Positions 10,163 through 62,091 of a stretch of 64,000 nucleotides of DNA are shown one piece after another. Location: contig CAYWVZ010000002.1 in the NCBI GenBank assembly GCA_964462215.1, forward strand, positions 2,880-66,879, given 5' to 3'. The stretch's first letter is position 1; each line of letters opens with the position of its first letter. Made by a program: the position numbers and the translations under genes. The DNA is from an uncultured Candidatus Saccharibacteria bacterium. Its GTDB lineage: Bacteria; Patescibacteriota; Saccharimonadia; Saccharimonadales; JAUPVS01. The notes below the pieces were generated by a model that searched no databases, was not told the origin of the DNA, and saw only the letters and a list, made by a program, of their open reading frames with translations.

Positions 10163-10781
10163 GCTGCGTAATCACCGGTTGTTCGGGCTGTAATACTGTG
10201 GCCCGCCCGGCTGCTACCTGACGAATAATATCTTCAATCCAATGATAGTGGGTACACCCCAATACGATAACGTCGGCACCTGCCTCACAGACCGCATCAA
10301 CACGTTGCCGGATCTGTTCGCGATCAACAGTATTGGTTTCGATCATATATGACCAATCGCTGCAATCCGGTTCAAGCACCTGTATGCCCTTGGCGTAGGT
10401 GTCTTTGAGCCAGGCGTAGCGTTTACTGGCCAGGGTAGTGGGCGTGGCACAAACAGCGATAATGCCTGTTTTAGTTGCCTCGGCGGCCGGCTTAACCATT
10501 GGCTCCATGGCAATAAGCGGTACTGGTACTTTTGCGCGCAATTGGTCAATGAGGGTGGTGCTAACGGTATTACAGGCAATCACGATAACATCACACTTTT
10601 CACTTAACGTGTTAAGTATTGGCAGAACTAATGTATAGAGCTCCTCTGGTGATTTAGTGCCATACGGTACGTGTTTGGTATCGTTGACGAACAATACTTT
10701 TGCGTCAGGCATGGCTTTCTCGATGGCGTTAGCCACCGATTTCCCCCCGATACCAGAGTCAAATACTCCAATAGTGGTCAT
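10134..10781 (-). CDS. murI: Glutamate racemase MurI.
   Basis: IGVFDSGIGG, ACNTVST, LGCTHYH motifs. Start at 10781 with GGAGG RBS. Convergent 29-bp overlap with murD. Confidence 0.9.
   Translation of the reverse strand: MTTIGVFDSGIGGKSVANAIEKAMPDAKVLFVNDTKHVPYGTKSPEELYTLVLPILNTLSEKCDVIVIACNTVSTTLIDQLRAKVPVPLIAMEPMVKPAAEATKTGIIAVCATPTTLASKRYAWLKDTYAKGIQVLEPDCSDWSYMIETNTVDREQIRQRVDAVCEAGADVIVLGCTHYHWIEDIIRQVAAGRATVLQPEQPVITQLKRVLEQRP
10602..10617. repeat. 16-bp palindrome ACTTAACGTGTTAAGT (copy A, inside murI).
   Basis: Read directly from the sequence. The flank ...TATTG is shared with copy D. Confidence 0.9.
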
Positions 10782-22859: not shown

Positions 22860-23456
22860 CTAACTATCATCACTCGTGGGTTGGTTTTGACGCGAAGGCG
22901 GCAGGGATTTTGGGGCCGGTTCGGTGTGGGCTAGAGTTTGCTGCAGCACGTTGAGGACGCTTTTGGCATGGTCGCGGCTCATACCGACGCGGGCTACTAT
23001 TGACGGCTGGCCACCGGAATTGCCGGTATTGCCCGGGTTCTGTAAAAAGTTCATCACCACGCCGTGATTGTTGATGGTCACGTTGACCATATCGGTGTAC
23101 ATAACCCTGTTGTCGTGCTGCATAACCATGACTAGCGGCTTCATGGAGTTGGTTTCGTCAATCGGCAAAGGGTTATTAGCGTTAACGTTGGCGCCCGGCA
23201 AACGTTGCTGGTCATATCCGGCCAGCTCCCACAGCTGCAGGGCCTCTTCGTCTTGCGGGTCAAAATAGCTGATTAGCAGTAGCAGAACATCTTCGGCTGG
23301 ACGATGTTCGCCCTGTTCGATACGCACCAGCAGGTCGGGGTCAATTTCAACGGCGCCCGATACCTCTACGACGCTCTCGTGCAGTTTCTCGCGCAGCGAC
23401 TTCAAACGATGTCCTAGGTTTTTATATGGTCGGTTGTGTTTTGCTGGCTCACTCAT
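22860..23456 (-). CDS. XRE-family helix-turn-helix transcriptional regulator.
   Basis: LGHRLKSLREKLHESVVEVSGAVEIDPDLLVRIEQGE. Confidence 0.6.
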   Translation of the reverse strand: MSEPAKHNRPYKNLGHRLKSLREKLHESVVEVSGAVEIDPDLLVRIEQGEHRPAEDVLLLLISYFDPQDEEALQLWELAGYDQQRLPGANVNANNPLPIDETNSMKPLVMVMQHDNRVMYTDMVNVTINNHGVVMNFLQNPGNTGNSGGQPSIVARVGMSRDHAKSVLNVLQQTLAHTEPAPKSLPPSRQNQPTSDDS

Positions 23457-24590: not shown

Positions 24591-24600
24591 ACTTAACATG

Positions 24601-24606
<6 letters not shown>
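24591..24606. repeat. Perfect 16-bp palindrome ACTTAACATGTTAAGT (copy B, at the glyA stop / murB-glyA convergent junction).
   Basis: Read directly from the sequence. Preceded by a partial extra half-site CTTAAC. Confidence 0.9.
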
Positions 24607-25878
<1,272 letters not shown>

Positions 25879-25974
25879 GTGCGGGCTCCCTCTGCAACCC
25901 CTATTGTAAACGACTCGCGAAGCAAACCAAAAAAGTACTTTAAAAATATCGCCTGTGGTATATAATGGTCGGGT

Positions 25975-27498
25975 ATGTTGACAACCAACCAGAAAATTGG
26001 CCAACTTATTTACCAGATACGACAAGAGAGAGGGCTAACTCAGGCCGAGTTTGCCCGCCGCTTGAGTACCAGCCAGTCGGCCGTCAACCGGATTGAACAC
26101 GGCAAGCAAAACCTGAGCCTGGAAACACTGGGGCGCATCAGCGAAGTTTTACAGAAACCACTGATTACCATCAGTGAGGGTGCCGTAAACCTGAACATCG
26201 AGGGCGGACACGAACTGCACGGCACGATTACTCTTAAGACCAGTAAGAATGCCGCCGTGGCCCTGATTTGCGCCAGTTTGCTCAATAAGGGCACCACGAC
26301 ACTTAAGAATATCGCCCGGATCGAAGAAGTTAACCGCTTGGTTGAAGTGTTGAACAGCATTGGCGTACACACACGTTGGCTGGCCGGCAACGACCTCGAG
26401 ATTAAGCCGCCGGCCGAGCTCGACCTGGATAAAATGAATAAGACCGCCGCCCGCAAGACGCGCAGCGTGATTATGTTCATCGGTTCCCTGATGCACCTGA
26501 CGAATGATTTTAAAATCCCCTATGCGGGCGGCTGCGAGCTTGGCCGGCGGACAGTGGCACCGCATCTCTATGCCCTGCAGGAGTTCGGCGTTGAAGTCTT
26601 TACCCGCACTGGGCATTACCATGTTACGGTCAACAAGCAGGTACCCAAACGCCCCGTCGTCCTTTACGAATCGGGCGATACTACCACCGAGAATATTCTG
26701 CTGGCAGCCGCCCGTACCGAGGGCGAAACAGTCATCAAAATGGCCAGCGCCAATTACATGGTGCAGGATCTCTGTTTCTTCCTGCAAAAATTAGGCATCA
26801 AGATCAGTGGCATCGGCACCAGCACCTTAACTGTGCACGGCGTAGCGAATATCAAGAAAAATATCAGTTACACGCCCGGCGAAGACCCGGTCGAAGCCAT
26901 GACGTTCATCGCGGCTGCCATAACGACCAACTCTAAGATTACAATCAAGCGCGCACCTATCGAGTTTCTGGAGCTGGAACTGCTCAAGCTTGAAAAAATG
27001 GGTCTTGATTACACCATAACCGAGCCGTACAAAGCCGCCAACGGGCATACCGACCTGGTCGACCTAACCATCAAGAAGCACAACGGTCAGCTCACAGCAC
27101 CGGTGGAAAAGATTCACCCCAACGTCTTCCCCGGCCTAAACATCGACCATCTGCCGTATTTCGTACCCATCGCCGCCGTGGCCCGCGGCCGCACGCTTAT
27201 CCATGACTGGATTTATGAAGACCGGGCATTGATGTACACCGAGATGAAGAAGATCGGCGTCAATATCGAAATGGCCGACACCCACCGCGTGTATGTCACC
27301 GGCCCGACCACGTTCAGAACCGCCGACCTGGTGGCGCCGAGCGGTATCCGGCCGGCCGTTATGTTACTGATCGGCATGTTGGCCGCCCCCGGCACTTCCA
27401 TGCTGCGCAATGTCTACACCATCAACCGCGGCTACGAAGACCTGGCCGAGCGCCTTAATTCGCTCGGCGCCAAGATCACCGTCATTCACGAACTATAA
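25975..27498 (+). CDS. murA: UDP-N-acetylglucosamine 1-carboxyvinyltransferase MurA, with an N-terminal XRE-type HTH domain of about 70 aa fused in frame.
   Basis: HTH: IRQERGLTQAEFARRLSTSQSAVNRIEHGKQNLS. The MurA core starts at LNIEGGHELHGTITLKTSKNAAV with catalytic Cys in YAGGCELGRR. No alternative start lies between the domains. Confidence 0.85.
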   Translation: MLTTNQKIGQLIYQIRQERGLTQAEFARRLSTSQSAVNRIEHGKQNLSLETLGRISEVLQKPLITISEGAVNLNIEGGHELHGTITLKTSKNAAVALICASLLNKGTTTLKNIARIEEVNRLVEVLNSIGVHTRWLAGNDLEIKPPAELDLDKMNKTAARKTRSVIMFIGSLMHLTNDFKIPYAGGCELGRRTVAPHLYALQEFGVEVFTRTGHYHVTVNKQVPKRPVVLYESGDTTTENILLAAARTEGETVIKMASANYMVQDLCFFLQKLGIKISGIGTSTLTVHGVANIKKNISYTPGEDPVEAMTFIAAAITTNSKITIKRAPIEFLELELLKLEKMGLDYTITEPYKAANGHTDLVDLTIKKHNGQLTAPVEKIHPNVFPGLNIDHLPYFVPIAAVARGRTLIHDWIYEDRALMYTEMKKIGVNIEMADTHRVYVTGPTTFRTADLVAPSGIRPAVMLLIGMLAAPGTSMLRNVYTINRGYEDLAERLNSLGAKITVIHEL

Positions 27499-56966: not shown

Positions 56967-57587
56967 TTAGCTTTGATCTTGCAATGCGGTTTTAATGTCG
57001 TCGTAGCGGAATCCTTGGCGCAACAGGTAGGCAATGAGTTTTTGATCATCCTGATAGCGCGGCTGAGAACGTTTTTTGGCGGCTAGTTGGCGAATGGTTT
57101 CGGTTTCGCCGGCGCCCTCGTTTTGATTGGCGTTATCTTGCGCCAACACCTGGGTGATTACCTCCTCGTCAACACGTTTTTGCAGGAGTTCCTGGCGCAG
57201 CCGGCGCAGGGAAGTGGGCTTGAGCTGGCGCCGGCTGCGCACCCACGCCTCGGCAAAGGCCGCATCATCCACGTAACCCTTAATACTTAACGTGTTAAGT
57301 ATTGCGTCGATAGTGGGGGAGTCGTACTGTTTGCGGCGCAGGTAATCTTCGACCTCCCACCGGCTGCGCGGCCGCCGAGCCAGATAATCTAGCGCCCGCA
57401 TATAGGCTTTGTCAGCTACAGCCACTCGTTTGAGCTCCTCTAGCTCGGCGGCCGTGTACTCCCGGCCAATCCGTAAACCGCTGCGTAAAAGCTCCGCTTC
57501 GCCCAAACTAAAAACATAAGCCCCGTCAATATACACAGAGTAGCGGCCGGCCCGCTTAACCTGCTGCTTAATATCCGTGACTTTCAT
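56967..57587 (-). CDS. recX: RecX recombination regulator.
   Basis: RecX three-repeat helical pattern (YALRYLARRPRSRWEV..., DDAAFAEAWVRSR). Start MKVTD at 57587 overlaps the yoeB stop (ATGA). Confidence 0.85.
   Translation of the reverse strand: MKVTDIKQQVKRAGRYSVYIDGAYVFSLGEAELLRSGLRIGREYTAAELEELKRVAVADKAYMRALDYLARRPRSRWEVEDYLRRKQYDSPTIDAILNTLSIKGYVDDAAFAEAWVRSRRQLKPTSLRRLRQELLQKRVDEEVITQVLAQDNANQNEGAGETETIRQLAAKKRSQPRYQDDQKLIAYLLRQGFRYDDIKTALQDQS
57285..57300. repeat. 16-bp palindrome ACTTAACGTGTTAAGT (copy D, inside recX).
   Basis: Read directly from the sequence. Confidence 0.9.
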
Positions 57588-61507: not shown

Positions 61508-62091
61508 TACTGGGTTCCTTTGAGGGCTTGTGTAATACGTTGTTCGGTTGGCAGAGCGGCATCGACGCCGTCCAAGGCTTTGGCGGCGTCGGCAAGCGTG
61601 TAGCCCAGGCTAACCAGGCCGGCTACCGCTTCGTCTTTGACGAGCAGTCCTTCGGACTGGAGCAGGCCAGCGGCGCCCAAATCCACGCCGGCCAGACCCA
61701 CTTTGTCTTTGAGGTCGACAACCACGCGCTCAGCCACCCGCTTGCCAACGCCGCTGGCCTGCTGAATAAATTTGACATCGCCGGCGGCGATGGCCGTTTT
61801 AACCTCTTCGGCCGAGCCAATACTTAACATGTTAAGTGCCATGCGGGGTCCGACGCCGTTGACTGTCAATAGCAGCTCGAACAAAACCTTAGTCGGCCGG
61901 CTGGCAAACCCGAACAGGTCGTGCGAAGCTTCGCGGATGTACTCATATATATAGACCTTGGTGGTTTCGCCTACCGTCAAGCGGCTAAAATCCTCGGCCG
62001 TTACGAACAGGCCGTAGCCGACGCCGCTAACGTCCAGCACGACTATATCGTCCAATTTCTCACCGATTATTCCCTCAAGCGTAGCAATCAT
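61507..62091 (-). CDS. ruvA: Holliday junction DNA-binding protein RuvA.
   Basis: MIATLEGII...GVGYGLFV..., HhH motifs [12 protein letters not shown]. Confidence 0.9.
61822..61837. repeat. Perfect 16-bp palindrome ACTTAACATGTTAAGT (copy E, inside ruvA).
   Basis: Read directly from the sequence. Confidence 0.9.

Follow-up and report, generated by a model that had tools for sequence, protein, structure and literature searches.

In a 64,000-nucleotide stretch of DNA from an uncultured Candidatus Saccharibacteria bacterium (contig CAYWVZ010000002.1, positions 2,880 to 66,879), hereafter called the window, a plus-strand open reading frame (ORF) at 25975..27498 encodes a protein of 507 amino acids (aa; plus stop codon) that unites an XRE/Cro-C1-type helix-turn-helix (HTH) domain with the core of MurA, the UDP-GlcNAc enolpyruvyl transferase that carries out the first committed step of peptidoglycan synthesis. 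We propose that this protein, HTH-MurA, is probably both an enzyme and an autorepressor, that is, a trigger enzyme. An HTH dimer would bind a 16-bp inverted repeat, ATAYCA-N4-TGRTAT, that lies across the spacer and -10 box of the gene's own promoter; once accumulated, HTH-MurA would occupy this operator, exclude RNA polymerase and stop its own synthesis. A domain with intact catalytic motifs and a domain of DNA-binding type reside in one polypeptide, and the position of the candidate operator over the -10 box, together with tests of the co-occurrence of helix and palindrome, appears to speak for regulation of the gene by its own product. From these features we infer DNA binding, dimerisation and the sign of the regulation.

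The HTH-MurA fusion and its enzyme core

The N-terminal part of the protein was assigned to the Pfam family HTH_3 (aa 12-63, 26008..26163, on the plus strand like all parts of the gene; 56.8 bits against a gathering cutoff of 23, E 2.3e-15), and the remainder to EPSP_synthase (PF00275, aa 76-494, E 3.3e-44). In the recognition helix, TSQSAVNRIE (aa 32-41, 26068..26097), residues T32, S33, Q34, S35, A36, R39 and E41 are invariant even where the aligned proteins share only about 30% overall identity. A flexible linker (aa 64-72, 26164..26190), recognized from its low conservation and from the confidence (pLDDT) of an AlphaFold2 (AF2) model, connects the HTH to the MurA core (aa 73-507, 26191..27495), which was assigned by its motifs and by Foldseek. 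In the full-length AF2 model (pLDDT 87.5, pTM 0.81), aa 4-59 form a four-helix bundle (helices at aa 4-18, 23-29, 34-41 and 49-59), the linker drops below a pLDDT of 50 at aa 64-69, and the MurA body is modeled confidently, with low confidence confined to the Cys loop, which is mobile by nature. Among solved structures, the HTH is closest to HipB, the restriction-modification controller proteins C.BclI and C.Esp1396I, SinR and CylR2.

The upstream boundary of the gene is set by an in-frame TAA at 25963, which closes the frame 12 nt before the ATG. No in-frame ATG, GTG or TTG occurs between codon 30, within the HTH, and codon 95, past K91, the equivalent of Lys22, so the MurA core is not translatable separately and its independent translation is ruled out. 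An original prediction, made from the letters of the window, had described about 70 extra N-terminal residues with an XRE HTH on MurA, quoting the helix QAEFARRLSTSQSAVNRIEHG (found at aa 23-43), had noted that no internal start is available at the beginning of the core, and had suggested structure prediction of the N-terminal domain as a check. The Pfam assignment, the distribution of start codons and the helical bundle of the AF2 model bear out all of this.

A one-genome-per-species scan returned 284 genomes with a relative, from which the best 80 Saccharibacteria loci were fetched. In all 80 species the match to HTH-MurA spans aa 1-507 as one segment, within a continuous frame of 505-510 aa. 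Furthermore, the 120 best-matching protein clusters, with identities of 78-87% and lengths of about 507 aa, all contain both domains; their named members belong to Candidatus Saccharibacteria, Saccharimonadales or Patescibacteria, and the fusion is found in more than 200 protein clusters altogether. Fused MurA is the ordinary form of the enzyme in this lineage. The claim that the fusion is real at the DNA level thus stands, and the check suggested for it, conservation in related genomes, comes out positive. The case that had been named against it, a frameshift separating a small XRE gene from murA such that relatives would show two ORFs, is ruled out by the frame that runs on in 80 species. 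We found no supporting point for an assembly or sequencing artefact that joined the two genes, and since the same frame recurs in the 80 species genomes, in the closed genome of a cultured relative and in isolates of Nonomuraea (Actinomycetota), we give this explanation practically no chance.

Across 81 species the mean pairwise identity of the HTH (aa 7-62) is 82.6%, as against 78.1% for the enzyme core, and the linker is the segment with the lowest conservation. The helix TSQSAVNR(I/M)E is near-invariant among Saccharibacteria species. Judged by these identities, selection on the HTH is at least as strong as that on the enzyme core. The neighbour-joining tree is rough and was used as a guide only.

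The core carries the full set of MurA catalytic motifs, as read from the motif alignment: SKNAA at the position of K22/N23, KTRS at R91, PYAGGCELGRR for the C115 loop and R120, NIDHLP at D305, EDR at R371 and IRPA at R397. The catalytic cysteine, target of fosfomycin and equivalent to Cys115, is Cys187 (codon 26533..26535). With the NCBIfam subfamily model NF006873 the protein scores 323.6, above the cutoff of 297; with the strict equivalog model TIGR01072 it scores 299.8, below the cutoff of 392.7. The top sequence matches in the PDB are MurA proteins over aa 69-505, with NikO and AroA scoring far lower, and Foldseek searches with the AF2 model returned MurA structures at TM 0.85-0.91. No second MurA-like sequence was found in the 64-kb window.

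A counterpart in a cultured organism allows the role of the gene to be addressed. SEML1_0687 of Southlakia epibionticum ML1 is 1524 bp long, adjoins the serine hydroxymethyltransferase (SHMT) gene, and carries PF00275 at 79-494 and PF01381 at 14-65 (Wang et al. 2023, PMC10633639). It is the sole K00790 gene and the sole 'carboxyvinyltransferase' entry in the genome table of S. epibionticum (PMC10633639, supplementary), and in transposon sequencing (Tn-seq) it was called essential at three time points (ES/ES/ES; PMC10633639, Tables S1 and S2), with 48 insertions in the input DNA falling to 1, 1 and 0 after selection (PMC10633639). The main text of that paper (Cell 2023) never mentions the fusion. 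Because the fused protein is the sole and essential MurA there, HTH-MurA is, as far as this comparison carries, the housekeeping MurA of the cell.

A candidate operator at the HTH-murA promoter

Immediately upstream of the gene lies a sigma-70-type promoter on the plus strand (25939..25966), composed of TTTAAA at 25939-25944, a 16-nt spacer and TATAAT at 25961-25966. The candidate operator, ATATCGCCTGTGGTAT at 25946..25961, is a 16-bp inverted repeat matching ATAYCA-N4-TGRTAT at 11 of 12 positions, and its right end is overlapped by the -10 box. The stretch from the -10 box to the ATG (25967..25977, plus strand) leaves a gap of 8 nt, with no room for a Shine-Dalgarno sequence. Just 5' of the -35 box, an A-tract (AAACCAAAAAAG, 25919-25930) that resembles an UP element is shared with the closest relatives (L001, L003 and L004).

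To place these elements in a comparative frame, the 130 nt upstream of the start codon were aligned for 81 sequences. The aligned promoters share a TTGCA-like -35 box and an extended -10 element, TGRTATNAT, that keeps register with the start codon: the TGRTATAAT-type element stands 8-11 nt from the ATG in 74 of the 81 loci. Since this distance, too, leaves no room for a Shine-Dalgarno sequence, the HTH-murA mRNA is probably leaderless or nearly so, as judged from the presumed start. A left arm, A-Y-R-Y-C-A, combines with the TGRTAT of the -10 region to form the 16-bp inverted repeat, which is perfect in some loci (e.g. ATATCATATATGATAT in L015). At the promoter, ATAYCA-N4-TGRTAT is matched at 9 or more of 12 positions in 80 of the 81 loci and at 10 or more in 72, while random windows of the same size reach these levels in 5.8% and 1.1% of cases, respectively. 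The 81st locus, L073, has a perfect palindrome at a greater distance, about 170 nt upstream but still between glyA and murA, and with this copy included the palindrome is present in 81/81 Saccharibacteria loci.

The pattern is, moreover, largely confined to this position. In its strict form it occurs 41 times at murA promoters in 743 kb and about five times elsewhere, and the left arm is almost always missing from the 54 other TGRTATNAT-type sites of the loci. The site at 25946-25961 is the only one with at most one mismatch in the 64 kb of the window. Further operator sites, or a regulon, within the window were considered and rejected: 17 sites with at most two mismatches were found against 5 expected, most of them within genes, and apart from the one at 25946 no site is followed, at the right distance, by an ORF that begins with ATG. 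Additional operator-type palindromes were seen just 3' of the murA stop in two loci (L066, 5491-5506; L060, 1713-1728).

The half-site centers are about 10 bp apart, which puts both on one face of the DNA; this geometry is usual for dimeric XRE repressors. A site that covers the spacer and the -10 box suggests that a bound protein would occlude RNA polymerase, and hence negative autoregulation.

Co-occurrence of palindrome and helix, and the gene neighbourhood

An exhaustive search of 50%-identity representatives recovered fused proteins down to 33% identity, their HTH confirmed by Pfam; a second homologue search with a profile of the distant clade returned mainly the Saccharibacteria clade again. 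Six distant loci, whose proteins are 28-46% identical to the window protein, were analyzed for the palindrome, and in all six the strict pattern occurs once per locus (8-13 kb), at the promoter of the unit that contains the HTH gene. In L085 (protein P0133; ATATCATATATGATAT) it lies within the 60 bp that separate a canonical murA-murB operon from the fused gene, downstream of which come ddl and a Mur ligase gene, and L084 (P0140; ATAACATATATGCTAT) has the same arrangement. In L091 (P0129) a perfect palindrome abuts the ATG of a fused gene divergent from a Mur ligase-murA operon, while in L083 (P0178; ATATCAAATATGATAT) the synteny with the XRE-like gene and murB is as in the window. The upstream gene is co-oriented in L087 (P0170; ATATCAGATATGATAT), and in L082 (P0147; ATAACAAGTATGATAT) the site is located at the promoter of an operon of an NTP_transferase gene and the fused gene. 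Upstream of three unfused relatives on the same branch (L088, L089 and L090) the palindrome is absent in every case.

The closest 50%-cluster representative, at 57% identity to the window protein, comes from Nonomuraea, an actinomycete. Proteins of this type are named 'helix-turn-helix domain-containing protein' or MurA at NCBI, and they form a 90%-identity cluster of 246 members. In Nonomuraea sp. NEAU-A123 (L081, 5972-7530; JAHFZZ010000002.1) the gene follows a Formyl_trans_C/ECH gene and is adjoined by a phage-type integrase. A perfect palindrome, ATCTCATATGTGAGAT, stands 13 nt before its ATG, with a symmetric change in both arms and in a genome of 70% GC. This distribution suggests transfer of HTH-MurA between Saccharibacteria and the actinobacterial host lineage.

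Several distant fused relatives (P0129, P0133, P0140, P0147, P0148, P0170 and P0178) keep fold and HTH but not the catalytic residues: R91, the Cys115 loop and R120 are gone, as is R397 in most cases. They adjoin a separate canonical MurA and sit among murA, murB, ddl and mur ligase genes. Given the loss of catalytic residues and this neighbourhood, they look like dedicated regulators, and the pattern is the one expected of a duplicated enzyme-regulator of which one copy turned into a pure sensor-regulator. The canonical MurAs beside the inactive paralogues (L084, 3768-5126; L085, 3624-4940; L091, 95-1411) keep K22, R91, C115, R120 and D305 and have Gly (YENGL) at R371 and Gln (IQA) at R397, an unusual MurA subtype.

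The association was also approached from the palindrome. Public metagenome contigs were scanned for the exact 16-mer ATATCATATATGATAT only, which gave 120 loci amounting to 662 kb. In seven of these an adjacent gene with this HTH starts 3-63 nt after the palindrome; six of the seven are HTH-MurA-like genes, and the other (L129) joins this HTH to a different C-terminal part. In eight more loci, a small XRE gene with this type of helix lies no further than 370 nt away, for example one that starts 61 nt downstream of the palindrome and encodes a stand-alone protein of 74 aa with TSQSAVARME. Overall, 15 of 16 HTH hits lie no more than 370 nt from the palindrome, as compared with none in a control in which the same query set was run on 679 kb of Saccharibacteria DNA that flanks the murA gene. 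By this comparison, helix and palindrome go together independently of the MurA moiety.

Among the metagenome loci, L096, L137, L146 and L147 encode HigA-like small XRE proteins with the helix TTQSNVARIE. In three of the four the gene lies 320-366 nt 3' of ATATCATATATGATAT, a spacing that would fit an intervening toxin gene, and in L096 the ORF begins at the palindrome. The same pair of operator and helix may therefore serve toxin-antitoxin modules too.

In the window, as in its relatives, HTH-murA closes a conserved gene order: an HTH_31-DUF3467 gene (minus strand), murB (plus), glyA (minus) and HTH-murA (plus). Upstream of HTH-murA, glyA was found in 77, murB in 67 and the XRE-like gene in 60 of the 80 loci. 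The glyA gene (serine hydroxymethyltransferase, 24601..25878, minus strand; Pfam SHMT, E 4.9e-157) diverges from HTH-murA across a common 96-bp intergenic region, a divergence also seen in those 77 loci and in S. epibionticum. The HTH_31 and DUF3467 gene (22860..23456, minus strand, 198 aa, divergent from murB) is the XRE regulator that the original prediction had located, correctly, 2.5 kb upstream; it is present in the distant locus L083 (33% identity) as well, which makes it a further conserved gene of regulatory appearance next to a mur gene. The murB coding sequence (CDS) holds two perfect inverted repeats, one of 19 nt (23620-23638/23712-23730) and one of 16 nt (23951-23966/24038-24053), which far exceed the length expected by chance for a 3.3-kb region. 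An Rfam search found no RNA element in the window between 22 and 28 kb.

Another 16-bp palindrome had been put forward earlier as a possible target of the HTH, on the grounds that two copies lie within 1.4 kb upstream of murA. These copies of ACTTAACATGTTAAGT exist, at 24591-24606 (overlapping the glyA stop codon) and 24652-24667 (inside the glyA CDS), but the link to the HTH fails: ACTTAACATGTTAAGT recurs in only one of 88 related loci (L053, position 2591), lies 1.3 kb away across glyA and is mostly within ORFs, and it is ruled out as the HTH target. In the window, ACTTAACRTGTTAAGT has five copies against 0.19 expected, the two just given and those at 10602-10617, 57285-57300 and 61822-61837; four are inside long minus-strand ORFs and one is on the glyA stop, and the murA intergenic region contains no copy. 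Its occurrence in a single one of the 88 related loci indicates that ACTTAACRTGTTAAGT is strain- or clade-specific and separate from HTH-MurA. An uptake signal, a modification site or the site of some regulator are possibilities for it.

Alternative readings and known systems

Three other readings of palindrome and protein have to be weighed against autorepression. The palindrome could be a mere promoter feature, either a conserved spacer or two extended -10 boxes, placed back to back, of a compact promoter that serves glyA and murA in both directions, with the role of the HTH lying elsewhere. The right arm, TGRTAT followed by NAT, is indeed a textbook extended -10 element, the left arm also reads TGRTAT on the opposite strand, and glyA is divergent in 77/80 loci. 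However, the left arm is kept in L082, L083, L087 and the Nonomuraea locus, where the upstream gene is co-oriented and there is no divergent partner. The 54 other TGRTATNAT-type sites contrast with some five full palindromes outside murA promoters, unfused MurA genes have no palindrome, and in unrelated metagenome DNA the exact palindrome picks out this very type of helix. We therefore regard a pure promoter feature as unlikely. Alternatively, the site could be a real operator that belongs to a different regulator, for instance the HTH_31-DUF3467 protein (22860..23456), with the HTH of MurA devoted to protein contacts or dimerization. XRE domains are capable of protein contacts, and the 198-aa XRE-like gene is syntenic in 60/80 loci and in L083. 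Yet no homologue of it occurs in the flanks of the palindrome-bearing loci L082, L084, L085, L087 and L091, nor does it figure in the gene tables drawn up there with Pfam, its product does not register as similar to the HTH type of MurA, and it is the invariant TSQSA(V/I)xR(I/M)E helix that tracks the palindrome across phyla, all of which makes this assignment distinctly unlikely.

A further reading treats the protein mainly as a transcription factor whose MurA-like domain is a sensor, the real MurA being encoded elsewhere or dispensable. Such proteins seem to exist among the distant fused relatives, which lack R91, the Cys115 loop, R120 and mostly R397 and stand beside a canonical MurA, and the window protein itself falls below the TIGR01072 cutoff. 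It nevertheless retains every catalytic motif, passes the NF006873 cutoff and is the only MurA in the 64-kb window, and the single K00790 gene of S. epibionticum is the fused one and essential; we consider it very unlikely that the window protein has given up its enzymatic role.

Autorepression by an enzyme that remains active is thus the reading we prefer, and several points weigh against it. The model is entirely computational. MurA enzymes are usually monomers, while a palindrome needs a dimer, and in the AF2 model, which is monomeric, the HTH is undocked. The site could also be bound by another factor whose helix is similar, and repression rather than activation is what we infer from position alone. 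The site in the window is imperfect: it fits the degenerate consensus at 11 of 12 positions, but its two arms complement each other at only 4 of 6. Within Saccharibacteria, no covariation between the arms was found at the Y/R position (p = 0.65). Finally, the right arm doubles as the extended -10 element, so that its conservation is partly that of promoter function and the independent evidence resides in the left arm and the co-occurrence tests. With these points taken into account, the conserved palindrome on the gene's own -10 region lends comparative backing to the earlier suggestion that HTH-MurA could autoregulate its gene. The other suggestion, a coupling of precursor synthesis to DNA or nucleoid position, finds no support; a sequence-specific candidate operator at the gene's own promoter argues for ordinary operator binding.

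One could speculate that DNA binding by HTH-MurA is modulated by MurA ligands (UDP-GlcNAc, phosphoenolpyruvate (PEP) or UDP-MurNAc), for which the only hint comes from the distant paralogues in which catalysis is dead and MurA fold and HTH are kept. A bolder scheme, which we hold to be possible though doubtful, is that the sole essential MurA senses the UDP-sugar/PEP pool via its active site and sets its own transcription, and that it founds a family of MurA-fold transcription factors, of which duplicated, dead copies in other bacteria with small genomes control divergent murA-murB and ddl-mur ligase operons with the same helix and operator. If true, the scheme would amount to the first transcriptional control circuit dedicated to the making of peptidoglycan precursors in Patescibacteria, and to a cassette that also reached the lineage of their actinobacterial hosts (Nonomuraea).

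MurA, which fosfomycin targets, stands at the entry to peptidoglycan synthesis. Its control is actively studied, and the known modes include proteolysis by ReoM/ClpCP in Firmicutes and coupling to LpxC in Pseudomonas; to our knowledge, no enzyme-borne transcriptional feedback has been described for it. Saccharibacteria, which live on actinobacterial hosts, encode few regulators in their very small genomes. If autorepression holds, a repressor wired onto the enzyme itself would provide an economical hold on the level of an essential enzyme. The prediction is testable, given that operator and helix are defined and that S. epibionticum is genetically tractable, and for the change from enzyme to regulator a natural comparison exists in the dead paralogues next to mur operons. 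The pairing of HTH and MurA domains can already be found in databases and one supplementary table and appears to have gone undiscussed; our literature searches found no paper discussing the fusion. Enzyme-repressor fusions as such are already known. New here are the conserved promoter palindrome of HTH-MurA and a proposed MurA type of enzyme-repressor with its candidate operator and dead-enzyme relatives.

Set beside known systems, HTH-MurA shares with canonical MurA (EC 2.5.1.7) the two-domain enolpyruvyl-transferase fold, the catalytic motifs including the cysteine targeted by fosfomycin, the linkage to murB and, in the cultured relative, essentiality. It differs from canonical MurA by about 72 extra N-terminal residues (XRE HTH and linker), as a divergent branch below the TIGR01072 cutoff, and by a presumably leaderless gene with a palindrome on its promoter. 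BirA, PutA and NadR are enzyme-repressors, and AlaRS autoregulates; like them, HTH-MurA joins a metabolic enzyme to a DNA-binding domain, with a promoter of its own gene or pathway as the presumed target, and unlike them it uses an XRE fold in place of a winged-helix or ribbon-helix-helix fold and acts in another pathway with another enzyme. The XRE family also contains the controller C-proteins, HipB, SinR, CylR2 and 434 Cro, which are dimers on short palindromes over their own promoters; genes for C-proteins are often leaderless. In contrast to these small, stand-alone autorepressors of 70-110 aa, the HTH of the window protein is fused to a 435-aa essential enzyme.

The distant fused relatives invite comparison with transcription factors built on an enzyme fold, such as MocR/GabR (winged HTH with an aminotransferase fold), NagC/Mlc (HTH with a sugar-kinase fold) and the PRK08154 type (HTH_3 with shikimate kinase), in that an HTH is joined to an enzyme fold from which catalysis has been lost and the genes sit among those they plausibly control. 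We know of no description of the MurA fold as the sensor domain of a regulator. Unlike the enzyme-fold transcription factors, the HTH-MurA of the window is still a complete enzyme.

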